From the NCBI RefSeq assembly GCF_050920415.1, contig NZ_CP169309.1: a stretch of DNA of 64,000 nt, one strand, 5' to 3'. The DNA is from Escherichia coli (GTDB lineage: Bacteria > Pseudomonadota > Gammaproteobacteria > Enterobacterales > Enterobacteriaceae). The number at the start of each line of letters is the position of its first letter. The first letter of the stretch is position 1. Both the position numbers and the translations under genes were made by a program. The notes under the pieces were generated by a model. That model ran no database searches, was not told where the DNA came from, and was given only the letters and a program-made list of their open reading frames with translations. This document shows positions 10,169 to 64,000 of this stretch, piece by piece.

Positions 10169-11779
10169 TCAGTTGTCGCCTTTGAATACGGTTCCAGCAG
10201 GAAGCACTGGCGCTTTTCCCGGGGCTTCAACCGGTGTCTGCGGGAGATAATGTTCAACTTGATGAGCTGGAATGTCGGCGTAATCCTGTTTCAGCCAGCG
10301 AATAAATCCGCCGACTTTCACCAGTAAAATGGCGAGGAAGGGAAGGGCAGTGAGGACGACGGTAGTTTTCATTGTTTCCAGCGAAGCACCGGTAAACAAG
10401 ATGGAAAGCGGGATCAGAGTGATCACTACGCACCAGAACAGACGCAGCCCACGGTCAGGATCGTCACCTTCCTGGAGATTACGCGTGCTGGTCGCCGCCA
10501 TGGTGTAAGCCACCGCATCCATATGCGAGGCGAGGAAGATAATCATCACGCCCAGGTATGCGGCGAGGAACAATTTACCGGCTGGCAACGACATCAGAAC
10601 TTGCTGCACAGCTGTTTCGCCGCCCAGTGTTTCCAGCACCTGTGGGACGTTGATTACGCCATTGATAAACTGATGAATGGCATAGCTTTCCATTACACCG
10701 AAGAAGAACCAGCAACCGACAGTGCTGCCGAGGATCAGTCCCCAGATAACTTCTTTAATCTTTCGACCGCGCGAAACGCGGGTGACAAACATTGCTACGC
10801 CAGGGGTGTATGAGATCCACCACAGCCAGTAGAAAACGGTCCAGTTGCGGGTAAATGAACCATCGCCAAGCGGATCGGTGAATAAGCTCATTTGCAGGAA
10901 GTTTTGCGTGGTCAGGCCGATGGCATTGATGATGCTGTTGGTAATAAATTCGGTTGGACCGACAATCAGCACCAGTAATGGCAGCAGGAATGCGCCCCAG
11001 CCAACCATTTTGCTTAGACGTTGCAAACCGTTGTTGATACCAATCCACGAGCTTAGGCAAAAAATGCCGCCGGAAAGCAGGATCACAAATGCCTGTACGG
11101 TAAAGTTATCGGGTAAACCGGTCAGCGCGGAAAGCCCACGGGTAAAGGTTGCTGCGGTGACAACAAGGGAAATGGTCAGTGCGCCGACAGTGGCGATCAG
11201 GAACATCAAATCGACCAGTTTCCCCCACGGGCCTTGCGGGCGAACGCCGGTAATAGCAGCAATAATGCCGGAAAGGCTCAGCCCTTTATTTTTCCGCACA
11301 TGAAAGTGATAAGCCATGATTAATGAGGCCAGCGTATAAGTTGCCCAGGCGCTGATGCCCCAGTGGAAGAAGGAGTAGGGAACGCTAAATTCGAGTGCCT
11401 GTTGTGAACGCGGTGCGATATTTAATCCAGGCGTTTGATAATAATAGGCCCATTCAGCAACCCCCCAATAAAGCGTAGAAGAACCTAAACCTGCACAAAT
11501 AAACATAAACAGCCAGGAGAGCGTGCTGTATTCCGGTTTTCCTTCGCCAAGACGAATATTGCCGTATTTACTGGTGGCTAAATAAATCACCAGTCCCATT
11601 GCCAGCAAAACCAATACCTGTACGGCGGAACCTAACGTACGCGTGACAAAAGTGTATATAGCGTTTGCCGCGTCGGCCGATTGTTGTGGGAAAAGGCTTA
11701 ATGCAGCTGCGATGAAAAGAATGGCCACCAGGCTGATGCTTATCAACGGCACATCTTTTTTCTTAACATTGCTCATCAT
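10169..11779 (-). CDS. yeaV: BCCT-family transporter YeaV (probable carnitine/betaine-type transporter)
   Basis: ORF track 536 aa; multi-TM BCCT-like sequence; start uncertain (reference annotation may be shorter). Confidence 0.8.
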
Positions 11780-11982
11780 GAGTCATCTCCTGGGCATAAA
11801 AGCCCGCCTCTGGCTTTTGCCAGTTGTAATTATTTGCAGGGTATGAGTTGTATGTTGTGTTTAACAAATTGATTATTTACATGTTACATAAATTAAACAA
11901 TTAAGAATACGGAAAGCCATAAAACACGAAACGGAAACAATAAAAGGTGAAATGACGCAGGTTATTTACTGCAAAGAACGAA

Positions 11983-44300: not shown

Positions 44301-45023
44301 TTAATCCTGCAACGCATAGGTTACGGTGGTGACTACGCGTACCGTTTTATTAATCGCCGTAGGATCATCTTCATCACTGCCACTGGCGAAGATCTGGAAC
44401 ACGCCTTGTGAGGCATCGCTAATTGACCCCACCTGGCTACCTGAGTCCGTTGCAAATTGTAATGCTGCGTTGCGTGCATCTTTGGTGGCGGCGGCAATCA
44501 TCTCAGCGCGCAGTGCGCCAATACCATTAAAGCGATAGGCGACTTTGCTCTCAGCGATAGCGCCCTCCGTAGCGACTTGCAGTTCGTTTAATTTCGCGAC
44601 GACTTTTTCGACAGCAGCAACATTATGGGTTTTTATCGTCACTGACCCGTCTGCGTTATAGCGTGGCATTGTGGGATCATCTTTCAGATAAAAGGAATCA
44701 GTTCGCTTGCTTGTCCATTGGCCCAGGGTTATCTCTTTCTCGTTAATCCCCTGAGCATTGAGTTCGGCAACAATTTTTTTCTGCGCGTCTTCCAGTTTCG
44801 GGAACAGTTCGCCGGGTATATTACCCTTAAAGTTAATCGCAATTGTTAATTCTGCCGTATCTGCGCGAACTTCTTTTTCAGAAAGCCCACGCACATTTAC
44901 ATAACGGTTATTGGTTTTTAAATGTTTAACACCATCGCCAACAAAATAACCACAGGCGCTAATCCCCAGTCCGAGGACGATAGCGGCAATTAAAGAGGGG
45001 GCCTTATTCACTGATGACTCCAT
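44301..45023 (-). CDS. Hypothetical exported or membrane-anchored protein, SIMPL/DUF541-like (about 239 aa; ORF extends to 45113)
   Basis: ORF track 44301..45113 (-); N-terminal hydrophobic segment APSLIAAIVLGLGISACGYFV; resemblance to SIMPL proteins (BP26/YggE type) is by eye only; a gene here is not expected from K-12 order. Confidence 0.55.
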   Translation of the reverse strand: MESSVNKAPSLIAAIVLGLGISACGYFVGDGVKHLKTNNRYVNVRGLSEKEVRADTAELTIAINFKGNIPGELFPKLEDAQKKIVAELNAQGINEKEITLGQWTSKRTDSFYLKDDPTMPRYNADGSVTIKTHNVAAVEKVVAKLNELQVATEGAIAESKVAYRFNGIGALRAEMIAAATKDARNAALQFATDSGSQVGSISDASQGVFQIFASGSDEDDPTAINKTVRVVTTVTYALQD

Positions 45024-45126
45024 ATCAGATGCTAAATGAGCAAGGGAATGTAGTGGAGAGAGGGAGTGAAAGACAGTCCGATTCAGGAGTGTGGCCGACA
45101 GCATATCGGCCACATTTTTGCAGGAT

Positions 45127-50815: not shown

Positions 50816-50837
50816 TGCTCTGATGCAGTCAGTTTTC

Positions 50838-50872
50838 GTAGGCCAGATAAGGCGTTCACGCCGCATCTGGCA
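50838..50872. repeat. REP element in topB-gdhA convergent spacer
   Basis: GTAGGCCAGATAAGGCGTTCACGCCGCATCTGGCA, close to canonical REP sequence. Confidence 0.7.
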
Positions 50873-50898
50873 TAAACGCCTGAAACGGCGCTAATGAC

Positions 50899-52242
50899 TT
50901 AAATCACACCCTGCGCCAGCATCGCATCGGCAACCTTCACAAAACCGGCAATGTTCGCGCCCTGCACGTAGTTGGTTTGCTCACCTTCACCACCATGCTC
51001 AACACAGGCATGGTGGATATCCAGCATGATGTGATGCAAACGTGCGTCAACTTTCTCGGCTTTCCAGCCCAGGCGCGCAGCGTTTTGCGCCATTTCCAGG
51101 CCGGATGTAGCTACGCCACCAGCATTAGCCGCTTTACCCGGTGCAAACAGTACGCCTGCCTGCTGGAACAGTTCAGTCGCTTCGATGGTGGTCGGCATAT
51201 TTGCCCCTTCGGCGACGGCTTTAACGCCATTGGCGATAAGCTGATGCGCGGCGTCTACATCCAGTTCGTTCTGGGTGGCGCAAGGCAGGGCGATATCAAC
51301 CGGTACAGACCACGGCTGTTGGCCTTCGAGATAGACCAGGCCAAATTTTTTGGCGTAATCTGCCACTCGACCATCGCGGCTGGCTTTGATTTCGATAAGA
51401 CGTGCCAGTTTCTCTTTAGTGAATCCGCTTTCATCAACGACAGTGCCACTGGAGTCTGACGCAGTAATCACACGGGCACCAAATTCCATCGCTTTTTCGA
51501 TAGCGTACTGAGCGACGTTGCCGGAGCCAGAAACGGAAACGCGCATCCCTTCAAAACCCATACCGTGGCGTTTTAGCATTGCCTCGGTGAAATAAACCAG
51601 ACCGTAGCCGGTTGCTTCCGGGCGAATAAGACTGCCGCCAAAAGAAAGCCCCTTACCGGTGAAGACGCAGGCGGTATTGTTGGAGAGCTTTTTCATCATC
51701 CCCGCCATAAAGCCGACTTCACGACCACCAACGCCGATATCACCTGCCGGAACGTCGGTATCTGCGCCCAGGTGGCGATACAGTTCAGTCATTAGCGCCT
51801 GGCAGAACCGCATCACTTCGCCTTCGCTTTTCCCTTTCGGGTCGAAATCGCTGCCGCCTTTACCACCGCCCATCGGCAGAGTTGTCAGGGCATTTTTGAA
51901 GGTTTGTTCAAAGCCGAGGAATTTGAGAATGGAGAGATTTACCGATGGATGGAAGCGCATACCACCTTTGTACGGGCCGATGGCGGAGCTGAACTGCACG
52001 CGCCATGCACGGTTGACCTGTACCTGGTTGCGATCGTCAACCCATACCACGCGAAACTGGATCACGCGCTCCGGTTCAACCAGACGCTCCAGTAATGACA
52101 TCTGACGATATTTTGGATTTTGTTCAAGAAAAGGCCAGAGTGTGGTCATTACTTCACGAACGGCTTGCGCGAACTCGGTTTGATTCGGGTCGCGCTTTTG
52201 GACATGGTTGAGGAATGACTCCAGAGAATATGTCTGATCCAT
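50899..52242 (-). CDS. gdhA: NADP-specific glutamate dehydrogenase
   Basis: ORF track 447 aa; GGGKGG motif. Confidence 0.95.
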   Translation of the reverse strand: MDQTYSLESFLNHVQKRDPNQTEFAQAVREVMTTLWPFLEQNPKYRQMSLLERLVEPERVIQFRVVWVDDRNQVQVNRAWRVQFSSAIGPYKGGMRFHPSVNLSILKFLGFEQTFKNALTTLPMGGGKGGSDFDPKGKSEGEVMRFCQALMTELYRHLGADTDVPAGDIGVGGREVGFMAGMMKKLSNNTACVFTGKGLSFGGSLIRPEATGYGLVYFTEAMLKRHGMGFEGMRVSVSGSGNVAQYAIEKAMEFGARVITASDSSGTVVDESGFTKEKLARLIEIKASRDGRVADYAKKFGLVYLEGQQPWSVPVDIALPCATQNELDVDAAHQLIANGVKAVAEGANMPTTIEATELFQQAGVLFAPGKAANAGGVATSGLEMAQNAARLGWKAEKVDARLHHIMLDIHHACVEHGGEGEQTNYVQGANIAGFVKVADAMLAQGVI

Positions 52243-52477
52243 AGATATAAAACCCTTATATATTAATACGATTATGCTTATGTTGTTTATGTCATGTGCT
52301 TTTGCAGTTTTCGACTATACCATCAAGAATGTGACGGTAAGCAAGAAAAAAATGACTCACGAAAGCAAATTAATAACGGGAGAAATCTCATAACCAAAAG
52401 CGATAACTCAGACGCTAAAGTTTTGCCGCCAGGCTACCGTTATCAGTAGCAGAGACAAAAACGTTAAGGAGTTCCCT

Positions 52478-52750
52478 GTGAGTCGAGCATTGTTCGCCCT
52501 AGCATTGGCATTTCCATTCATTGCACTGGCTAACCCGCATTATCGTCCGGACGTGGAGGTAAACGTACCGCCTGAAGTATTCAGTTCAGGCGGGCAGTCA
52601 GCGCAGCCCTGTACTCAGTGCTGCGTCTATCAGGATCAAAACTATTCTGAAGGGGCGGTAATTAAAGCCGAAGGAATACTGCTGCAATGCCAGCGGGATG
52701 ACAAAACTCTTAGCACTAATCCGCTGGTCTGGCGGCGCGTAAAGCCATAA
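52478..52750 (+). CDS. ynjH: Secreted small protein YnjH (DUF1496), GTG start
   Basis: ORF track 90 aa; signal peptide; 3' end overlaps nudG 3' end. Confidence 0.7.
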   Translation: MSRALFALALAFPFIALANPHYRPDVEVNVPPEVFSSGGQSAQPCTQCCVYQDQNYSEGAVIKAEGILLQCQRDDKTLSTNPLVWRRVKP

Positions 52751-53123
52751 ACGCCTCTAATAGTGGAATGTCAGCAGGGGCCAGCGGATATTGCAGCGCC
52801 TCTTCAGGTGAGCACCAGACCAGCGCCTGATGTTCATGTGCCTGTAACGTCCCGTGGAAGTCGGGTACGTGCCAGGCATGAAGATGGATAATCCGCCCCG
52901 ACACTTCTCGCTGATGGCTGGCAACATACTCACCCACAGTTGCTTCGATGCCCAATTCTTCGCGTAACTCACGCACCAGCGCCTGCCGCTGGCTTTCATC
53001 CGGCTCGACTTTACCACCGGCAAACTCCCATAATCCCGCCTGATCGCTATGGGCGGGGCGTTGAGCGAGTAAAATTTTGCCATCACGTTCGATGATGGCG
53101 GCAACAACTTCAATCATATTCAT
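52716..53123 (-). CDS. nudG: Nudix hydrolase NudG (CTP/5-methyl-dCTP pyrophosphohydrolase)
   Basis: ORF track 135 aa; Nudix box GGKVEPDESQRQALVRELREELGI. Confidence 0.85.
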   Translation of the reverse strand: MNMIEVVAAIIERDGKILLAQRPAHSDQAGLWEFAGGKVEPDESQRQALVRELREELGIEATVGEYVASHQREVSGRIIHLHAWHVPDFHGTLQAHEHQALVWCSPEEALQYPLAPADIPLLEAFMALRAARPAD

Positions 53124-53209
53124 AAATTACACACGGGCAGATAAGCGAAAAATGCCATAATATCCGCACTGTTGCTCAATCAGAAAGGCTTTATATTTAA
53201 GGAGTGCCT

Positions 53210-53830
53210 GTGTTAGACCGCCATCTTCATCCCCGAATTAAACCTTTGTTGCATCAGTGTGTGAAGGTTCTGGATAAACCTGGTATCACGCCAGATGGTT
53301 TAACGTTAGTGGGGTTTGCTATCGGCGTGTTGGCATTGCCGTTTCTGGCACTGAGCTGGTATCTGGCGGCGCTGATTGCCATTTTACTAAACAGATTGCT
53401 TGATGGTCTGGACGGCGCGCTGGCACGGCGTCGAGGCCTCACCGACGCAGGCGGCTTTCTCGATATCTCGTTGGATTTCCTTTTTTACGCGCTGGTGCCT
53501 TTTGGGTTTATCCTCGCCGCACCGGAGCAAAACGCGCTGGCAGGCGGCTGGCTGCTGTTTGCGTTTATCGGCACGGGCAGCAGTTTTCTCGCTTTTGCTG
53601 CGCTGGCGGCGAAACATCAGATTGATAATCCCGGTTATGCGCATAAATCGTTTTATTATCTGGGCGGGTTAACCGAAGGCAGCGAGACGATTTTGCTGTT
53701 TGTTCTGAGTTGTCTCTTGCCGGCTTATTTTCCGTGGTTTGCGTGGATATTTGGCGCGCTGTGCTGGATGACGACCTTTACGCGGGTGTGGAGTGGATAT
53801 CTGACGCTGAAGTCGCTCCAGCGTCAGTAG
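53210..53830 (+). CDS. ynjF: CDP-alcohol phosphatidyltransferase-family membrane protein YnjF, GTG start
   Basis: ORF track 53204..53830; AGGAG SD 5 nt before GTG at 53210; DGxxAR motif. Confidence 0.8.
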   Translation: MLDRHLHPRIKPLLHQCVKVLDKPGITPDGLTLVGFAIGVLALPFLALSWYLAALIAILLNRLLDGLDGALARRRGLTDAGGFLDISLDFLFYALVPFGFILAAPEQNALAGGWLLFAFIGTGSSFLAFAALAAKHQIDNPGYAHKSFYYLGGLTEGSETILLFVLSCLLPAYFPWFAWIFGALCWMTTFTRVWSGYLTLKSLQRQ

Positions 53831-53838
53831 TTGCAATG

Positions 53839-55146
53839 TTATTTGCTGCTGTCCGGGCCGCGCTCACCGGTTGCTACGGGATTTTTCGGATCGCTGCTCC
53901 ATTCGTACCAGCCGCCGTCGTAAACGGAGACGTTATTCCAGCCCATTGCTCGTGCGTACATAAAGGTTTCGGACGCGCGCCAGCCGGTGCCGCAGTAGAA
54001 TGAAACTTGCTGATCTGGTTTGATATTCCATGCTTTCCACATAGCGGCAATATCATCGGCGCTACGCATGGTGCCATCCGGGTTATGGAAATCCTCCATA
54101 TGCGTCGAGTCGCTACCAGCGTGTCCCCAACGGGCTCCGGCTATTTCACCTTTTGGCTTAATATAGCTGTAACCACTGGTCGTACCGATAAATTCTGGCC
54201 ACGAACGAATGCTCACCAGCGATGCATCCTGGCGATGCAGCAGCCCACGGGCCTGTTCCATATCAAGCATCAACTGCGGTTGCGCCGGGATCTTCACGCC
54301 GAAATCCGGTTCAGCTTTCACTTTCGGTGGCGTTCCGCGCTCAACAGGCAGTCCCGCGTCGGACCAGGTTTGCCAGCCGCCGTCCAGCAGGCGCACATCT
54401 TTCACCCCTGCATAGAGCATAATCTGTGCTACACGCGCTGCTGCGTATACATCACGACCATATAGAATCACCGTGGTGTCATGACGAATGCCATGTTTTG
54501 CCAGCATCGCTTTCAGTTGTTCATCAGAGACTTTATTCCACAGCGGTTCGCTTTCCACTTCATTGGTATCGATGTAATCCGCGCCGGGAATATGGCTGAT
54601 AAGGTAAAGCTTAGGAGCGCCCCAGGCCGCTTCAATGACTTTCCAGTCACCGGCAGGTTTCGCTGTAACGTCTTTTCCTTGTTGCAGGTCATGCAGCCAT
54701 TGCGGATAAACCAGCTGCTCAAAGTGCGGCAGTTTTTGCAGACGGGAAGGTTCGCTTAGCGCGTCACTCAAAATGGAGATATGCGTAAAACCTGCTTTTT
54801 GCAGTCGCGTTTTGACGGCGTCGACATCTTTGTCATTACCGTACAGCGCCACCGGAGCGTCGGTTTTCAGGTTATGTTGCTTGATCCACGCGTTGAGCTG
54901 TTCGGTGCTCATTTTGTCGAGCCAGCTAGCAGAGAGGTTTAAGGCGGCAGGTTCATGACCAGAAGGGCCATTTAAGGTTTGTGGCCAGCCGTTATAAAAC
55001 GCGCTGGGGCGAGTATCTATCGCTTTGCCATTTTGTTGTTGAAGCTGGTCAAGTGTAAGAGGCTTCGCCAGTTCAGCGGCCCACGAAGAAGCGCAAGCCA
55101 GCCCTAAAGCCATTGCCAGCGCGGTCATTTGAGAAACACGTTTCAT
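53839..55146 (-). CDS. ynjE: Periplasmic multi-domain rhodanese (thiosulfate sulfurtransferase) YnjE
   Basis: ORF track 53839..55161; signal peptide; rhodanese active-site Cys (YCGTGWRAS). Confidence 0.85.
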   Translation of the reverse strand: MKRVSQMTALAMALGLACASSWAAELAKPLTLDQLQQQNGKAIDTRPSAFYNGWPQTLNGPSGHEPAALNLSASWLDKMSTEQLNAWIKQHNLKTDAPVALYGNDKDVDAVKTRLQKAGFTHISILSDALSEPSRLQKLPHFEQLVYPQWLHDLQQGKDVTAKPAGDWKVIEAAWGAPKLYLISHIPGADYIDTNEVESEPLWNKVSDEQLKAMLAKHGIRHDTTVILYGRDVYAAARVAQIMLYAGVKDVRLLDGGWQTWSDAGLPVERGTPPKVKAEPDFGVKIPAQPQLMLDMEQARGLLHRQDASLVSIRSWPEFIGTTSGYSYIKPKGEIAGARWGHAGSDSTHMEDFHNPDGTMRSADDIAAMWKAWNIKPDQQVSFYCGTGWRASETFMYARAMGWNNVSVYDGGWYEWSSDPKNPVATGERGPDSSK

Positions 55147-55212
55147 CGAAAATCCCGACATTGTAGTTTTGAGTGCGCCATTCTGAACTGACGCATTGGG
55201 AAAAACTTTGCG

Positions 55213-55866
55213 TTATCGCAGTTTGTTGTAATTTTCTGACCACTGCGCCATATCCAGAACAGAACTATCAGCAGGAACATCCTGGATATCGTGCGTTACC
55301 TGAACGACGGGGATCGCCATGGCGCGAATTTCGCTGAACACCCACTGGCGAAAATTATCGCGCAGAGCCACATCAAGACGGCTGAACGGCTCATCCAGGA
55401 GTAACGCTCTTGGCTGGGCGAGAAGGGCGCGTAGCAGAGCAACGCGCGCTCGCTGACCGCCAGACAAAGTGGCAGGATCCTGATGGAAAGCTCCGTCAAG
55501 GCCTGAACGCTCAAGTGCATCATTCACGGCATTACGTCGGGCATTCCCCTTAAGTGTCTCCGGTAGCGCCAGCAGTAAATTTTGCCCGACGCTGAACTGG
55601 TCAAATAACAGTGCATCCTGGAAAAGAATGCCAATCTGACGCTGTGCGGTGGGTTGCATGTCAATCCGTTGCTCATTGAGCCATAGCTCACCTGCACAAG
55701 AAAACTGTCCGGCCAGCGCACCAATCATCCATGAAAACAGTGTAGATTTTCCACAGCCAGACGGCCCCATTAACGTGACAATGTCACCTTTATCCACCGT
55801 AAAGTTAACGTTTGTCAGCAAGCGGCTTTCTGGTAAACGTAGCGAAACATTTTTCACGCAGAGCAT
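55213..55866 (-). CDS. ynjD: ABC transporter ATP-binding protein YnjD
   Basis: ORF track 55213..55953; Walker A GPSGCGKST, signature LSGGQRARV; start overlaps ynjC stop. Confidence 0.85.
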   Translation of the reverse strand: MLCVKNVSLRLPESRLLTNVNFTVDKGDIVTLMGPSGCGKSTLFSWMIGALAGQFSCAGELWLNEQRIDMQPTAQRQIGILFQDALLFDQFSVGQNLLLALPETLKGNARRNAVNDALERSGLDGAFHQDPATLSGGQRARVALLRALLAQPRALLLDEPFSRLDVALRDNFRQWVFSEIRAMAIPVVQVTHDIQDVPADSSVLDMAQWSENYNKLR

Positions 55867-57401
55867 TAGCGGAGTCCTTGTCTGACATAACCTACCCATT
55901 TTGCGACTAACGCGGTCAGGGCAAAAATAATAAGCGGCAACAGTAGTTGCCATAAAGCCTGGGCGGCGAGAATGCCGTTGCTGCCGCCGCTGCTTAATGC
56001 CACCGCTTCAGTGGTGAGCGTCGGAAAACGCCCCGCGCCCAGCCACAGAGTCGGCATATACTGCGCAATACTGACTGAAAATCCTACCGCGAAGGCAATC
56101 AGCGCAGGGCGCAACATGAGTGGGCATTTCACGTAAAAGAAGATTTTGGCCCGCGACCAGCCCAGTGTTTGCGCAATCAAAATTAACCGTGAATCAATGC
56201 GCTGCCAGGCGGGTTGCAGGATAAACAGCATCCACGGCATTACCCACAGCAGATGCCCCCAGACCACCGCTGTCCAGCTCCCATCTATGTTCAGCCATAG
56301 CGCCAGCATGTACTGGCCCGCCACCAGCGGCAGAGCGGGTAATAAAATGGGCAACCAGAGCCACAACTGGCGACGCTTTGCCCCCCATTCCAGCCACAGC
56401 AGTAACAGGACCAAAGCGATAAACGTCGCCACCAGCCCCATTGTCAGGCTGTTGATGAGCGCTTCACTATTGATCGTCGACTGATCCGCGAGGATCGCCA
56501 GCAGAACCACACACAGCACACCGGTTAAGGGTAAAAAACTCGCCAGTGTATTGCCGGGTAATAAAGGCGTGGCGGGCTTACGAACGCCATCTACGCGGGG
56601 AATGGTGCACTGCCAGGCGCGCCAAAGTAAATAGCCCAGCAAAACGTAGACGGCGAGTAACAGCATCAGCAGCAGGCTGGCGAGTGCGCCTTTCATCTGT
56701 TGATCGGCGTCGCCTTGGGTTAACCACTGCCAGCTAATTACCGCCAGCGTCGGTGGATTACCCGGCCCGAGAATAATTGCCACATCCACGACCGACAACG
56801 ACCATGCCACAATAGCCAGCATCGCCATTGCCAGTGCAGGCGCGACGGAGGGCAACAACAACCAGTTCAGACATTGCCAGCGGCTGTAGCCCAGCGAATC
56901 CAGTACAATAACCTGCTGCAACAGCCGTTTCTCGCTCAATACTGCCGCTAAGATCCACAGCAGAAATGCGCTTTCTTTCACCGCCAGGGTAAGGCCCAGC
57001 CCAATACCCAATTTATCCATCGGCGGAGTGAGAAAAGGAAAAACCTGATAAACCAGGCCACCTTCAGCAAACAGCAACAGGGCGCTGGTGGCAAAAGCCA
57101 CATGGGGAATGGCGAGCAGCCACGGCAGACGGGCGCACATACGCTGCCATTTCGGCCCAGGCCACAGCGCCATAATTACCAGCAGGGCAATCGTCAATGC
57201 GCCGAGCGCCGCGATGGTTGTTGACACCAGTGTTGCCAGTAAGGCCTGCGGTAGCTGCGGATCGGCAAATAACGCCTGCCAGTGTGCCAACGACAAAGCA
57301 GGCGATATCAGCGTGAGAGCTGCCGGGATCAGCGGTGCATAAATCACCGCCACCATCGCCCACAGCAACAAGATTAATGCGTACCGTAACGGTGTAGCCA
57401 T
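55866..57401 (-). CDS. ynjC: ABC transporter permease YnjC (fused double permease)
   Basis: ORF track 55866..57425; multi-TM. Confidence 0.85.
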   Translation of the reverse strand: MATPLRYALILLLWAMVAVIYAPLIPAALTLISPALSLAHWQALFADPQLPQALLATLVSTTIAALGALTIALLVIMALWPGPKWQRMCARLPWLLAIPHVAFATSALLLFAEGGLVYQVFPFLTPPMDKLGIGLGLTLAVKESAFLLWILAAVLSEKRLLQQVIVLDSLGYSRWQCLNWLLLPSVAPALAMAMLAIVAWSLSVVDVAIILGPGNPPTLAVISWQWLTQGDADQQMKGALASLLLMLLLAVYVLLGYLLWRAWQCTIPRVDGVRKPATPLLPGNTLASFLPLTGVLCVVLLAILADQSTINSEALINSLTMGLVATFIALVLLLLWLEWGAKRRQLWLWLPILLPALPLVAGQYMLALWLNIDGSWTAVVWGHLLWVMPWMLFILQPAWQRIDSRLILIAQTLGWSRAKIFFYVKCPLMLRPALIAFAVGFSVSIAQYMPTLWLGAGRFPTLTTEAVALSSGGSNGILAAQALWQLLLPLIIFALTALVAKWVGYVRQGLR

Positions 57402-58540
57402 TCTTGTTCCAGCGCATTTACCCAACCTGCGTGCGGTTCAGCCAGTACCGGCGGCAGATCCTGCGGCATTCTTGATTGCAATATTTCATGCTGCCCGTCA
57501 GGCAGTTTTTGCGGATCGAGAACCGATGGATCGCCCCAGACAGCAGGGTCTGCTTTACGTAGCTGTGCATCAGGTGAGAGCAGGAAATTGGCAACCACCT
57601 TCGCCGCAGCACTGGCATTCGCGTTAGCAGGAATGGTGACAAAATGCACGTTGCCAATCATCCCCTCGTTAAAACCAAAACTGTAACTGCTTGCCGGCAA
57701 ATCGCCACTGGCGATTTTTTGCTGGGCATGTGCAGGATTAAAGGTCAGCGACAGGCGCAATGTGCCAGCTTTCAGCAGAGCATCCATCCGCGCGGGCGAA
57801 GGTGGGAAATCCTTTCCTTCGCGCCATAAATACGGATGCAGCGCATCAAGATATTGCCACAAGGGCGCAGTGATACGGGCGAAAGTCGCATCGTTCGGCG
57901 CTTCTTTTAATGCTGCGGGATCTGGCGTCAGCATAATCAGTAACTGTTCAAGAAATGCGGTGCCAGTAAAGTCTGGCGGGCGCGGATAGGTAACCGTGCC
58001 AGGATTGGCTGTAGCAAATTCCAGTAAGGCTTGCGGTGTTTGTGGTGGCTGTGGCGTAACATCGCGGCGGGCGATAAACGTCAGTTGAGCGCCGCCCCAC
58101 GGCGATTCTGCGCCTTCGACAGGTACAGAAAAATCTTCCCGTACCGGCAGTTGTGTATCGACATAACGCCAGTTTGGCAGAGTCTCAGCCCAGCCGGTTT
58201 GCAGTAAATTGGCCTCTTTTAAAGTGCGGAAGTTTTCGCCGTTCACCCAGAGCAGATCCACCGAACCGCCTGTCTCGCGCCCGGCTGCGGCTTCGGTCTG
58301 AATGCGCTTCACCGCGTCTGCGGCATCCGCCAGGCGGACAATCTTCAGGTTTATATCATAATGGGTTTTCATCTCGCCGCTAACCCAGTCGAGATAGCGG
58401 TTAATTGCGGTATCGCCGCCCCAGGCGTTAAACCAGACGGTTTGCCCTTTGGCCTCATTTTTAACTTCCTGCCAGTCACTGGCATGTGTTGCCAGAGAAA
58501 ACAGCGATAACAATCCCAGCAACCACCCACAATGGCGCAT
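57374..58540 (-). CDS. ynjB: ABC transporter periplasmic substrate-binding protein YnjB
   Basis: ORF track 57374..58543; signal peptide. Confidence 0.85.
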   Translation of the reverse strand: MRHCGWLLGLLSLFSLATHASDWQEVKNEAKGQTVWFNAWGGDTAINRYLDWVSGEMKTHYDINLKIVRLADAADAVKRIQTEAAAGRETGGSVDLLWVNGENFRTLKEANLLQTGWAETLPNWRYVDTQLPVREDFSVPVEGAESPWGGAQLTFIARRDVTPQPPQTPQALLEFATANPGTVTYPRPPDFTGTAFLEQLLIMLTPDPAALKEAPNDATFARITAPLWQYLDALHPYLWREGKDFPPSPARMDALLKAGTLRLSLTFNPAHAQQKIASGDLPASSYSFGFNEGMIGNVHFVTIPANANASAAAKVVANFLLSPDAQLRKADPAVWGDPSVLDPQKLPDGQHEILQSRMPQDLPPVLAEPHAGWVNALEQEWLHRYGTH

Positions 58541-58549
58541 CATCTCTCC

Positions 58550-59098
58550 TTAAGAACGTTTTTCAGGAATACGGCACAGCCCCTGAGCGGGAATGTCCAT
58601 GGCAGAATTAAAACGGGCTGACAGATTTTGCAGGCCGATCAATGCCGTCAGTTCGGTGAGCGCCTGGGCGTCAAAATGCGCAGCCAGTCGGGTACGCAGG
58701 GCATCATCGACCGTTGGCGGCGTTACGCTGGCGGCTTCGGCGTACTCCAGCGCCAGCCGTTCTTCATCGCTAAAGAGCGGGCTTTGCCGCCAGTCAGCCA
58801 CTGCCAGCAACTTATCGGTGCTGCCGGTACGCTCGGCGACTTTCATACTGGTGATATCCACGCAAAACTCACACAGGCACATTTGCGCAATGCGCGCGCT
58901 GACAAGCGATCGCACTACCGGATCGAGCGGTGAGCGTTTACGCTCCAGCCAACCGACAAACATCGACACCAGATAAAAGATAAACGGGATCCGTCCCCAC
59001 CAGCGAATTGGACTTAGCACCTCGCCGTAATGGCGACGATGCAGCCACGCCTGCGGACGTAAACTTAAAGGAATTTTGCTAAGCGGTGGTAAACCCAT
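58550..59098 (-). CDS. ynjA: Carboxymuconolactone decarboxylase (AhpD-like) family protein YnjA
   Basis: ORF track 182 aa; CxxC-containing AhpD-like sequence. Confidence 0.8.
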   Translation of the reverse strand: MGLPPLSKIPLSLRPQAWLHRRHYGEVLSPIRWWGRIPFIFYLVSMFVGWLERKRSPLDPVVRSLVSARIAQMCLCEFCVDITSMKVAERTGSTDKLLAVADWRQSPLFSDEERLALEYAEAASVTPPTVDDALRTRLAAHFDAQALTELTALIGLQNLSARFNSAMDIPAQGLCRIPEKRS

Positions 59099-59802
59099 CA
59101 GGCATTCCTCTTCTGGCGTTCAAGCCATATTTTTTTCGCCATAAAAATCACCACGGTCAGGGCAAACAGAATAAACAGTCCGGTGACAAACCAGAAGGTA
59201 CCGCCCGTTAACATACTGCCCGCCCAGGAATAAACAATAGTCGCCGGTAACTGACCAAGCCCGGTGGCGATAAAAAACGAGCGAAAACGTATTGACGTCA
59301 AACCGGCAGCATAGCTGATTGGATCGAAAGGGACAAAAGGCAATAACCGGCATACCAGGATAGTGTGTTTGCCGTAGCGAGTGAAAAAGCCGTCCATACT
59401 GTCAAGCATGGTTTTACCGGTTAATTTTTCCACCACTTCGCGGCCCATTACTCTGGCGATAAAAAAGCATAGCGCCGCGCCCGCCATAGAACTGGTCCAC
59501 GACAGCAAGCCGCCCCAGAACGCGCCAAACAGCGACGCATTGGCAAAGGTGATCAAAAATGCAGGCAGCGGTGCAGCAATGGCCTGTAAGATCATTAAAA
59601 AGAATGAGACCAGTGCAGCCTGCGTGCCGTAAGACGCAATAAAGCGTTCAATGCCTTGTTGATCCACGGCGGCAAAGGCTACAAGGCTGCTGTTAATAAA
59701 CTCATAAACGCCGGGAATCAGCGCCCATGCGAGCAGCGCAACAATTAACAAGATGATAATGACGCCACGCCAGAGCCACATTTTACGGTTTTTATCTCTC
59801 AT
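59098..59802 (-). CDS. ydjZ: DedA/TVP38-family inner-membrane protein (YdjZ-like)
   Basis: ORF track 234 aa; stop overlaps ynjA start by 1 nt. Confidence 0.8.
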   Translation of the reverse strand: MRDKNRKMWLWRGVIIILLIVALLAWALIPGVYEFINSSLVAFAAVDQQGIERFIASYGTQAALVSFFLMILQAIAAPLPAFLITFANASLFGAFWGGLLSWTSSMAGAALCFFIARVMGREVVEKLTGKTMLDSMDGFFTRYGKHTILVCRLLPFVPFDPISYAAGLTSIRFRSFFIATGLGQLPATIVYSWAGSMLTGGTFWFVTGLFILFALTVVIFMAKKIWLERQKRNA

Positions 59803-59805
59803 CTT

Positions 59806-60510
59806 TCATCTTTGTTGTTCGGTTAAAGAGGTTTTATCAGAAGTGGTCAGTGCCACTTGTTTGTAACGGGCGTAGCATTTAGCAAGCTGAATAAGAATAA
59901 ACAGTATTAGCCCTGCCAGACAAAGTTTGAAAATAAATGATAATGTTATGCCTTCAGTAACAAGGTCGCTGGCCATAAAAGTATAAATAAAGATCCCCGG
60001 CAGAGTCGTGAATGCCGAAATAAAGGTATATGGCCAAAAGGCAATGGCGGTTAATCCGTAGGCGTAATTTTGAATATTGTAAGGAAATAGCGGAATTAAG
60101 CGGGTAAGAATAAGAAAATCGATACCGTTACGTGCAATCCCTTTCTCAATAGACTGAAAGACGGTGGTATCCCCAACATATTTCAGCACCAGTTCTCGCC
60201 CCATCCAGCGAGCAATCAAAAAGGAAACCGACGAAGCGAGCGTTGCTGCAACTAACGAAAGCAGAGTCCCCAAGAATGGACCAAAAATAATGCCACTGCC
60301 AATGACCAGGACACTACCGGGCAGCAGCAGAAGAGTGGCAATAACAAATAACAGAATATAAAGGCTGTAACCGAAAATACCACTCTGGCGAATAAGTGCC
60401 TGCAAGTGAGGAAGATCGCTAATGAAATTGAATATGCCTGAAGCATAAACAAGATAAATTGCCAGAGCAAAAGTCAGACTACCAACAACGAACTTACACT
60501 CAGCTTTCAT
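59806..60510 (-). CDS. ydjX: DedA/TVP38-family inner-membrane protein (YdjX-like)
   Basis: ORF track 234 aa; paralog of adjacent gene; stop 3 nt before ydjZ start. Confidence 0.75.
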   Translation of the reverse strand: MKAECKFVVGSLTFALAIYLVYASGIFNFISDLPHLQALIRQSGIFGYSLYILLFVIATLLLLPGSVLVIGSGIIFGPFLGTLLSLVAATLASSVSFLIARWMGRELVLKYVGDTTVFQSIEKGIARNGIDFLILTRLIPLFPYNIQNYAYGLTAIAFWPYTFISAFTTLPGIFIYTFMASDLVTEGITLSFIFKLCLAGLILFILIQLAKCYARYKQVALTTSDKTSLTEQQR

Positions 60511-60666
60511 CGTGGAGATTTCCTATATCAAGCCTTGATAATAGAGAAGTGAAAAACGCGATGACGGTATAACAAACCTAAGCTGGTCACAAATCCTTAC
60601 TGCCAGTTTCTTGATTATCCTCAAGAATCGGCCTCCTGACCTGGAGGATGTCAGGAGGCTGCGTCA

Positions 60667-61473
60667 TTAGCGGCGGAAGGTCGCCCACACAGGCGCGTGA
60701 TCGGACGGTTTTTCCATGCTGCGGATTTCATAGTCGATGCCGGTTTCTACGCAACAGTCTGCCAGCGGTTGGCTGGCGAGCAGCAGGTCGATACGCAGAC
60801 CACGGTTATCGTCAAAACCTTTTGAGCGGTAATCAAACCATGAGAAACGATCTGCTGTTTCCGGATTCGCATGGCGGAAGGTATCCACCAGCCCCCAACT
60901 TATCAGCCTGTCCATCCATTCACGTTCTTCAGGCAGGAAAGAACATTTACCAGTACGCAGCCAGCGTTTGCGGTTCTCTTCGCCAATGCCGATATCCAGG
61001 TCGGTGGGGCTGATATTCATATCGCCCATAATCAGCACCGGATTTTCACGCTTGAGTTCGGTTTCCAAATAATTTTGCAGATTCTGATAAAACTGCGCCT
61101 TCGCCGGGAATTTTATCGGATGGTCGCGGCTTTCACCCTGCGGGAAGTAACCGTTGATCACGGTGACATTGCCCAGCGGCGAGGGGATTTCCGCCATAAT
61201 AATTCGCCGCTGCGCCTCTTCGCCGTCGTCAGGGAAGCCGCGACGCACGGCAATCGGCGTCTCTTTGGTCAGCAGCGCCACGCCATAATGGCCTTTCTGC
61301 CCGTGATAAAACACGTTGTAGCCGAGCTTCGCCACCTCTTCGAGCGGAAACATATCGTCATGAACTTTTGTCTCCTGCAGGCCAATCACATCCGGTTGGT
61401 GCTTTTCGACGATGGCTTCAAGCTGGTGAGGTCTGGCGCGCAGGCCGTTGATATTAAAAGAGACAAATTTCAT
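60667..61473 (-). CDS. xthA: Exodeoxyribonuclease III (268 aa)
   Basis: ORF track 60667..61485; start trimmed to [14 protein letters not shown]. Confidence 0.95.
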
Positions 61474-61830
61474 AGTCGCTGCCATTTATTCAGATAAAGA
61501 GTGCGTGGATGGTAGCAGAATTTCGCTTTGCTTACCGCCTGTTGTTAAGTGATTTGATCGATGGTTGTTAATGATGTCAACGATGGCGCAAAAAATGCCC
61601 GCTTTTGGTGCGCGCTGCGTCAGAATGGCGCAGTAATTTCCAGTAAATTTCGTCAATGATCACAATTCCAGAATTATATTTTACTTCTGCATAACATTGC
61701 GTTTTTTATTCTTTTTATTCACCTGCATCGCAAACGTATTCACTTTATATGCACTTTAAATGCATATGGTTTGGTTATAACTCCTTGATTTCCAGTTAGC
61801 CACCGCGGTTTATGCACTTTTATCACTGGC

Positions 61831-61846
61831 TGGCACGAACCCTGCA
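61831..61846 (+). promoter_or_regulatory. sigma54 promoter TGGCACG-N4-CTGCA upstream of astC
   Basis: TGGCACGAACCCTGCA about 70 nt upstream of astC ATG. Confidence 0.6.
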
Positions 61847-61882
61847 ATCTACATTTACAGCGCAAACATTACTTATTATTAA

Positions 61883-64000
<2,118 letters not shown>

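Follow-up and report, generated by a model that had tools for sequence, protein, structure and literature searches.

Organization of the ydjX–ydjZ locus

The DNA analyzed here (the window, 64,000 nucleotides (nt) of Escherichia coli contig NZ_CP169309.1) contains the ydjX–ynjD gene cluster in a form in which two genes of DedA/TVP38 type, ydjX and ydjZ, directly abut one another with no ydjY between them. Both are intact minus-strand open reading frames (ORFs) for 234-residue proteins (coordinates in Table 1); the spacer between them is 3 nt long (59803–59805), and base 59098 is common to the ydjZ stop codon and ynjA, the coding strand reading TGATG at this point. Against the Pfam VTT_dom model (PF09335, cut-off 33.9 bits) YdjX scores 87.9 and YdjZ 86.5 bits, placing both in the DedA superfamily; matches this far above the cut-off indicate real genes rather than chance ORFs. 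A sequence-only reading of the same DNA had described two DedA-family ORFs of 234 residues lying 3 nt apart, with the downstream one overlapping ynjA by 1 nt, a description that the ORF coordinates, the domain matches and the shared base all bear out. Because the window matches the complete chromosome of E. coli MFDS1022581 (NZ_CP169399.1) at 100% identity, and there both genes are annotated as TVP38/TMEM64 family, the junction is not an artefact of the window assembly. An Rfam scan of positions 57000–62000 gave no match.

The operon of E. coli K-12 MG1655 (ydjXYZ–ynjABCD, b1750–b1756) occupies the same position between xthA and ynjE/ynjF and has the same gene order apart from ydjY. The 1-nt ydjZ/ynjA overlap, an FNR-like site and a palindrome in the leader are likewise shared, and the ynjA–ynjD proteins are 97–99% identical. 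By contrast, ydjX (236 residues) and ydjZ (235 residues) of K-12 are separated by ydjY (225 residues), with spacers of 4 and 14 nt, so that K-12 does not have the 3-nt junction; the sequence-only reading was accurate in giving K-12 a 225-residue ydjY between the two. In the window no ORF with a YdjY domain (NF040466/PF27149) is present between xthA and ynjF. The orthology of the window genes with K-12 ydjX and ydjZ is apparent from the retained synteny, with xthA upstream and ynjA–D downstream, and from the identities of the proteins (172/234 residues, or 73%, for YdjX and 210/234 for YdjZ; the values for xthA and ynjA are 261/268 and 180/182). Besides lacking ydjY and having the 3-nt spacer, the window differs from K-12 by an 11-nt deletion in the ydjX leader, which is common to the ydjY-less alleles.

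A diverged allele accompanies the absence of ydjY

The absence of ydjY comes together with a very old, AT-rich and deeply diverged allele, which covers the xthA–ydjX spacer, ydjX itself and the first ~75 codons of ydjZ. A blastn comparison with K-12 breaks inside ydjX and again inside ydjZ, leaving 82 window bases facing 784 K-12 bases, and the sliding nucleotide identity to K-12 drops to 70–86% only at about 59500–60750, being 92–100% on either side. Nearly all of the differences between YdjZ and its K-12 counterpart lie within the first ~75 residues.

Estimates of synonymous (dS) and nonsynonymous (dN) divergence, all made by the Nei–Gojobori method, reveal the same pattern. For ydjX, the window and K-12 differ with a dS of 1.36 and a dN of 0.16 (dN/dS 0.12), and the dS between the ydjY-less and K-12-type allele classes is 1.36–1.50; the corresponding K-12 values are 0.52 (dN 0.073) with respect to E. 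albertii and 0.24 (dN 0.026) with respect to Escherichia sp. E1V33. The flanking genes of the window have an overall dS of 0.1–0.3 (ynjA: dS 0.12, dN 0.005). The edge of the diverged block falls within ydjZ, the first 75 codons of which have a dS of 0.74 and a dN of 0.22, compared with 0.16 and 0.003 for the remainder. The GC content of third codon positions (GC3) of ydjX is 38–40% in the ydjY-less alleles (window 40%) and 53% in K-12, with 57–60% in the flanking genes. Gene conversion between ydjX and ydjZ was considered as a source of the divergence and rejected, the two paralogous proteins being only ~30% identical to each other in both allele classes.

Analyses of the pangenome or of recombination in which ydjX counts as a single orthologue need to allow for this short, near-saturated island (dS ~1.4) inside otherwise ordinary sequence.

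Occurrence in E. coli

A search of 5,426 complete E. coli genomes gave a ydjY match in 5,353; the 73 without one are in line with the number of ydjY-less alleles, which were recognized (at least 90% identity to window positions 59560–60520) in 70 of the same genomes, about 1.3%. The pangenome comparison proposed in the sequence-only reading thus finds ydjY nearly everywhere and its absence in a small minority. Among the 70, three are of the window type and 67 of a commoner type at 92–93.5% identity. Exact look-ups revealed three variants of the ydjY-less YdjX: the window's own protein occurs on 280 contigs, and two commoner E. coli variants, which are 17–19 residues from it, occur on at least 1000 contigs each.

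The commoner allele, as in ECONIH5, STW0522-31 and AW1.7, resembles that of the window in lacking ydjY and in its class of ydjX (dS 0.08–0.10), but differs in that ydjX and ydjZ overlap by 4 nt (ATGA) and in having ordinary E. coli flanks. In ECONIH5 the diverged block stops about 100 nt into ydjZ. A recombinant ydjX was also found, on metagenome contig ERZ773478 (L021, 7001–7711), in which the 5' two-thirds are 99–100% identical to the ECONIH5-type allele and the last third is K-12-type and followed by ydjY. ERZ773478 derives from a low-coverage metagenome assembly, so the recombinant could be chimeric; an identical protein is encoded on a second contig (L022). The recombinant YdjX and the ydjY-less alleles, as ydjY-null backgrounds, provide natural material for those working on DedA proteins.

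The Escherichia fergusonii link and the mosaic tract

The nearest proteins to the window YdjX (99% identity, 1–3 residue differences) are named E. fergusonii by NCBI, and K-12-type YdjX proteins are 72–75% identical to it. Contigs encoding the E. fergusonii-named YdjX, including a 4.69-Mb NCBI chromosome (CP056961.1, L030), have the arrangement xthA–VTT (234 residues)–3 nt–VTT–CMD–SBP, and the junction sequence is identical to that of the window in L004, L005 and L030–L032. The architecture and the junction of the E. fergusonii-named locus are therefore those of the window; the chromosome of the window differs from it in being E. coli on the left side (nudG, ynjH, gdhA).

The likeness extends well beyond ydjX and ydjZ. 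From ~53.4 kb to 64 kb (~10.8 kb) the window is 96–100% identical to the E. fergusonii-type contigs, and a further 3 kb or so of the source chromosome, past the window end, is similar as well. To the left of ~53250, the window is 96–98% identical to K-12 and 76–88% to the E. fergusonii-type contigs, with its nudG, ynjH and gdhA being K-12-like and the same genes in the E. fergusonii-type contigs extremely different. The left edge of the tract lies within or beside ynjF, for which the dS relative to K-12 is 0.62, as it is for the E. fergusonii-type contigs. Within the tract some 250-nt windows are nearer to K-12, a mosaic pattern that would be expected if DNA imported from another species had since recombined further with alleles of E. 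coli.

Two observations concern the E. fergusonii-type sequences themselves. In CP056961.1 (L030, 9709–10413) ydjZ is called at 227 residues and ends 21 nt before ynjA, without overlap, which suggests a small indel near the 3' end. Further, nudG, ynjH and gdhA of L004/L005 (17500–19900; window counterpart 50900–53200) are hyper-divergent from K-12, with dS values from 1.26 to saturation, compared with 0.16–0.31 for ast, xthA and ynjA–E of the same contigs, so that they form a second island of deep divergence beside the ynj operon.

Origin of the ydjY-less allele

Overall, it is probable that the window has a naturally occurring allele, of the E. fergusonii form and lacking ydjY, of the known, anaerobically induced and FNR-activated ydjX(Y)Z–ynjABCD operon, and that it was obtained by homologous recombination. 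The E. coli lineage would have received the allele within the ~11 kb mosaic tract, which spans ynjF to the ast genes. The AT-rich core appears to predate the Escherichia species splits by far. Most likely, this segment would have been replaced in the E. fergusonii lineage by a xenologous copy from an unsampled relative whose ydjX and ydjZ were already contiguous, an arrangement also seen in other enterobacteria; the ydjY-less allele would then have passed into E. coli at least twice. Both DedA genes, intact and apparently under purifying selection, would be transcribed from a conserved FNR-type promoter, and the operon probably works without the Cys-rich lipoprotein YdjY.

The foreign replacement is favored by the distances of the flanking genes, by the type of allele in E. 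albertii and by the AT-rich composition. With respect to K-12, the flanking-gene dS is 0.16–0.31 for the E. fergusonii-type contigs and 0.5–0.8 for E. albertii, yet the allele of E. albertii is K-12-type and about as distant as the species tree would predict. Four Escherichia representatives (E. albertii NBRC 107761, Escherichia sp. E1V33, E69 and SCPM-O-B-8794, the records of the last two being titled E. coli) all have the order ydjX–ydjY–ydjZ among the matches listed in a scan of species representatives, which used a YdjZ alignment with poor peptide patterns; the matches listed also included one irrelevant archaeal locus and no E. fergusonii.

Several points weigh against this history. The E. 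fergusonii assignment is by NCBI protein names and one assembly accession. No donor of the ydjY-less allele was found among 1.84 billion cluster representatives, which hold no complete YdjX relative between 46% identity and the Escherichia cluster. YdjX fragments of a third lineage, 50–78% identical over the fragments, are about equidistant from both allele classes. The ydjZ called at 227 residues in CP056961.1 means that some copies may be decaying. With regard to polarity, ydjY could instead be a gain in the E. coli/E. albertii lineage.

The best of the competing explanations takes the abutting ydjX–ydjZ pair as ancestral in enterobacteria, with ydjY and the K-12-type ydjX inserted on the way to E. 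coli, E. albertii and the cryptic clades, and the ydjY-less allele either retained or re-imported. It has in its favor three short contigs from other enterobacteria-like organisms (xthA 89–91% identical to E. coli at the amino acid level, GC 52–55%), which carry three of the third-lineage fragments and on which xthA is followed at the same chromosomal position by ydjX and then ydjZ, with the ydjX stop overlapping the ydjZ start and no ydjY, so that the arrangement is not peculiar to the window. The equidistant third-lineage fragments, and the fact that the GC3 of K-12-type ydjX and ydjY (49–53%) is also below that of the flanks, are likewise as this explanation would have it. We nevertheless regard it as unlikely. 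The E. fergusonii-type flanks are nearer to K-12 than are those of E. albertii, and given the K-12-type allele in E. albertii, a single gain of ydjY must predate the E. fergusonii split, such that a loss is needed in any case. Moreover, it is the ydjY-less ydjX that is the compositional outlier (GC3 38–40%), and Enterococcus hirae has a homologue of YdjY (38% identity) in one gene cluster with YdjX-like, YdjZ-like and YnjB-like genes. The latter association makes YdjY an old member of the gene set, with which a loss, at whatever time, fits better than gain.

A second possibility, that losing ydjY inactivated the system and left ydjX and ydjZ to drift in a decaying operon without function, is very doubtful. 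The operon is poorly expressed in K-12 (RiboReport), ydjX is split or internally shortened on the three third-lineage contigs, and there is the short ydjZ of one E. fergusonii-named chromosome. However, full-length ORFs for both proteins are present not only in the window but also in L004, L005, L031, L032 and those E. coli carriers that were examined; the ydjX dN/dS is 0.12 between the classes and 0.19–0.42, on few changes, within the ydjY-less class; the VTT-domain scores are strong; and the ydjZ start codon is back in frame after the gain of a 7-nt repeat.

Finally, ydjY could have been lost recently, by simple deletion within a K-12-type ydjXYZ, in this strain or its close relatives; the sequence-only reading had implied a deletion from such an operon. 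This would account for ydjY missing exactly between otherwise collinear genes and for the lack of a ydjY remnant at the junction, but is effectively ruled out by the divergence of ydjX and 5' ydjZ around the junction (ydjX alone differs from K-12 at 27% of residues), by the presence of the same junction in chromosomes and contigs with E. fergusonii-named proteins, and by the related junction in about 67 other E. coli genomes with different flanking backgrounds.

As a rare natural allele of a known operon, already present in annotated public genomes, the window locus matters little by itself. Its interest lies more in the indication that the operon repeatedly runs without YdjY; E. fergusonii, other enterobacteria and about 1.3% of E. 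coli all provide examples.

The junction, coupling and regulation

Read on the coding strand from 59811 down to 59791, the junction consists of the 7-nt units AGATGAA, AGATGAG and AGATAAA, the ydjX stop being at 59806–59808 and the ydjZ start at 59800–59802. The commoner ydjY-less E. coli alleles (STW0522-31, ECONIH5) have two such units, so that the ydjX stop and the ydjZ start overlap as ATGA and YdjZ starts with MKDKN. In the window and the E. fergusonii-type sequences the third unit puts the first ATG out of frame and provides a new in-frame ATG three bases past the ydjX TGA, so that YdjZ begins MRDKN. The 3-nt junction would thus be derived from the ATGA overlap by the gain of one 7-nt unit.

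No good Shine–Dalgarno sequence, only a weak one, was seen before the ydjZ ATG on direct reading of the sequence, making reinitiation following ydjX termination likely; ydjZ is probably translated by termination–reinitiation at TGA-AAG-ATG. A search for promoters and terminators between the genes gave three promoter-like and six terminator-like hits, compared with 2.7 and 3.6 expected from shuffled sequences, and an internal promoter or terminator between ydjX and ydjZ was accordingly rejected as a candidate, the consensus hits being at the level of shuffled sequence. That the DedA genes may be cotranscribed with ynjABCD is suggested by the 3-nt gap and the 1-nt overlap, together with promoter and terminator matches that do not exceed chance, and the suggestion of translational coupling made in the sequence-only reading is consistent with the same features.

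The FNR-like site upstream of ydjX is present in all of the aligned alleles (TTGAGgataATCAA in the window, TTGAGaaaaATCAA in K-12), with the half-sites TTGAG-N4-ATCAA kept. In K-12, FNR binds and activates ydjXYZ–ynjABCD via a site at −60.5 (PMC3688515). Since binding and activation have been demonstrated in K-12 only, it is from the conservation of the site that we infer FNR activation of the window operon. Other work has shown that ynjABCD is mildly induced by BaeR overproduction (PMC2731931), and in RiboReport ydjX through ynjE are handled as one eight-gene operon that is weakly expressed under standard conditions. A palindrome, TATCAAGGCTTGATA, lies ~15 nt upstream of the ydjX start and is near-invariant in six alleles despite the diverged spacer around it; it may be a regulatory site.

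Functional context of the gene set

YdjX and YdjZ have been grouped with the TMEM41 family, and the predicted fold of the K-12 proteins has two re-entrant loops with conserved prolines (Okawa et al., bioRxiv 10.1101/2020.12.18.423352). The VTT/DedA domain of both window proteins is that of the TMEM41/Tvp38-like branch of DedA proteins, which includes YdjX, YdjZ and the eukaryotic TMEM41B and VMP1. Lipid transport is the favored activity of the superfamily, and when eight E. coli paralogues were tested in Bacillus subtilis only DedA gave high-level resistance to MX2401 (bioRxiv 10.1101/2022.02.03.479048). The window proteins are distinct from the DedA/UptA undecaprenyl-phosphate transporters, reaching at most 36 bits on UptA models with cut-offs of 250–300; on the NCBIfam UptA equivalog (cut-off 250) YdjZ scores 35.7 bits and YdjX has no hit.

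K-12 YdjY matches NF040466 with 146 bits and has a lipobox and a conserved GCLxCxxSCPxG motif. A sequence search of the PDB with YdjY gave no meaningful hit, and an AlphaFold2 model from a six-sequence alignment was too poor for use, with a mean predicted local distance difference test score of 57. In the literature on ydjY, ynjF and ynjA–D, no functional study was found beyond regulon lists. In the case of YnjF the catalytic motif is intact, and its best NCBIfam matches are (archaetidyl)inositol-phosphate synthases, all below the family cut-offs.

The sequence-only reading regarded tandem DedA genes in an ABC (ATP-binding cassette) transporter operon as an unusual arrangement; it is, however, that of the standard FNR-activated ydjXYZ–ynjABCD operon of Escherichia (PMC3688515), and YdjX-like genes adjoin YnjB-like ABC importers in unrelated bacteria as well. 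In two such loci (L019, 335–5540, and L020, 463–2988) a YdjX-like VTT gene adjoins a YnjB-like binding protein, ABC genes and a full-length YnjF homologue; the YnjB-like proteins beside distant YdjX relatives are 38% and 31% identical to YnjB (E = 7e-78 and 4e-56). On an E. hirae-type contig (L024, 3765–13857), homologues of YdjY (38%), YdjZ (45%) and YdjX (40%) occur together with one of YnjB; the YdjZ homologue has 387 residues and an N-terminal extension, and the cluster also encodes a 4Fe-4S ferredoxin-like protein, a CCG-domain protein, an APH-family kinase and a DUF2064 protein. When the YdjY-like protein of E. hirae was used as the query of a homologue search, the only match was the protein itself. 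L023 and L026, two of five distant YdjX-like loci, showed no ABC or phosphatidyltransferase neighbours; the neighbourhood link is thus recurrent but not universal.

These associations raise a tentative, and on present evidence rather improbable, proposal, i.e. that ydjX(Y)Z–ynjABCD and ynjF constitute a conserved lipid head-group module. In such a module YnjBCD would import a polar (phospho)alcohol, YnjF would attach it to a lipid, and YdjX/YdjZ would move the product across the membrane, with YdjY being a dispensable, extracytoplasmic, Cys-rich lipoprotein accessory. Were this the case, the coexistence in E. coli of alleles with and without ydjY would be a natural experiment on YdjY and the DedA pair. 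The neighbourhood of DedA, ABC and phosphatidyltransferase genes offers a starting point, open to testing, for identifying what the bacterial DedA proteins of TMEM41-like type act on.

Feature coordinates and other differences from K-12

The genes, sites and tracts referred to above are collected in Table 1.

Table 1. Positions of the ydjX–ynjF genes, associated sites and diverged tracts in the window
Feature	Position	Strand	Basis or remark
ydjX-like DedA/TVP38 gene, 234 residues, E. fergusonii-type allele	59806–60510	−	ORF, VTT_dom match, alignment to K-12
ydjX–ydjZ junction, three 7-nt units	59791–59811	−	Sequence comparison of alleles
ydjZ DedA/TVP38 gene, 234 residues	59098–59802	−	ORF, VTT_dom match, alignment to K-12
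ynjA, AhpD/CMD-like, 182 residues	58550–59098	−	ORF, CMD family match, 180/182 residues as in K-12
ynjB, ABC substrate-binding protein	57374–58540	−	SBP_bac_8 match; NCBIfam NF008633 at 556 bits
ynjC, fused double ABC permease, 511 residues	55866–57401	−	Annotation of identical record
ynjD, ABC ATPase	55213–55866	−	Annotation of identical record
ynjE, rhodanese-type sulfurtransferase	53839–55146	−	Annotation of identical record
ynjF, CDP-alcohol phosphatidyltransferase, convergent with the operon, E. fergusonii-type allele	53210–53830	+	Annotation; dS
FNR-like site TTGAGgataATCAA (coding strand), upstream of ydjX	60611–60624	−	Allele alignment
Palindrome TATCAAGGCTTGATA, conserved in the leader close to the ydjX start	60526–60540	−	Allele alignment
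Deeply diverged allele block, core; 70–86% nucleotide identity to K-12	59560–60660		Sliding identity; blastn breakpoints 59757/59840
Mosaic tract nearest to E. fergusonii-type sequence	53400–64000 (window end)		96–100% identity to L004/L005/L030

Three further differences from K-12 were observed elsewhere in the window. The ynjI gene (K-12 b1762, 1,041 nt) is absent, the gdhA–topB gap (50816–50896) being 81 nt with a palindrome, gccagataaggcgttcacgccgcatctggc, like those of repetitive extragenic palindromic elements. Between sppA and ansA, where K-12 has about 52 nt, there is an extra minus-strand ORF of up to 270 residues (44301–45113). Lastly, 223 nt at 11652–11874 have no K-12 counterpart and correspond to K-12 position 1883151, in the dmlA–yeaV intergenic region.

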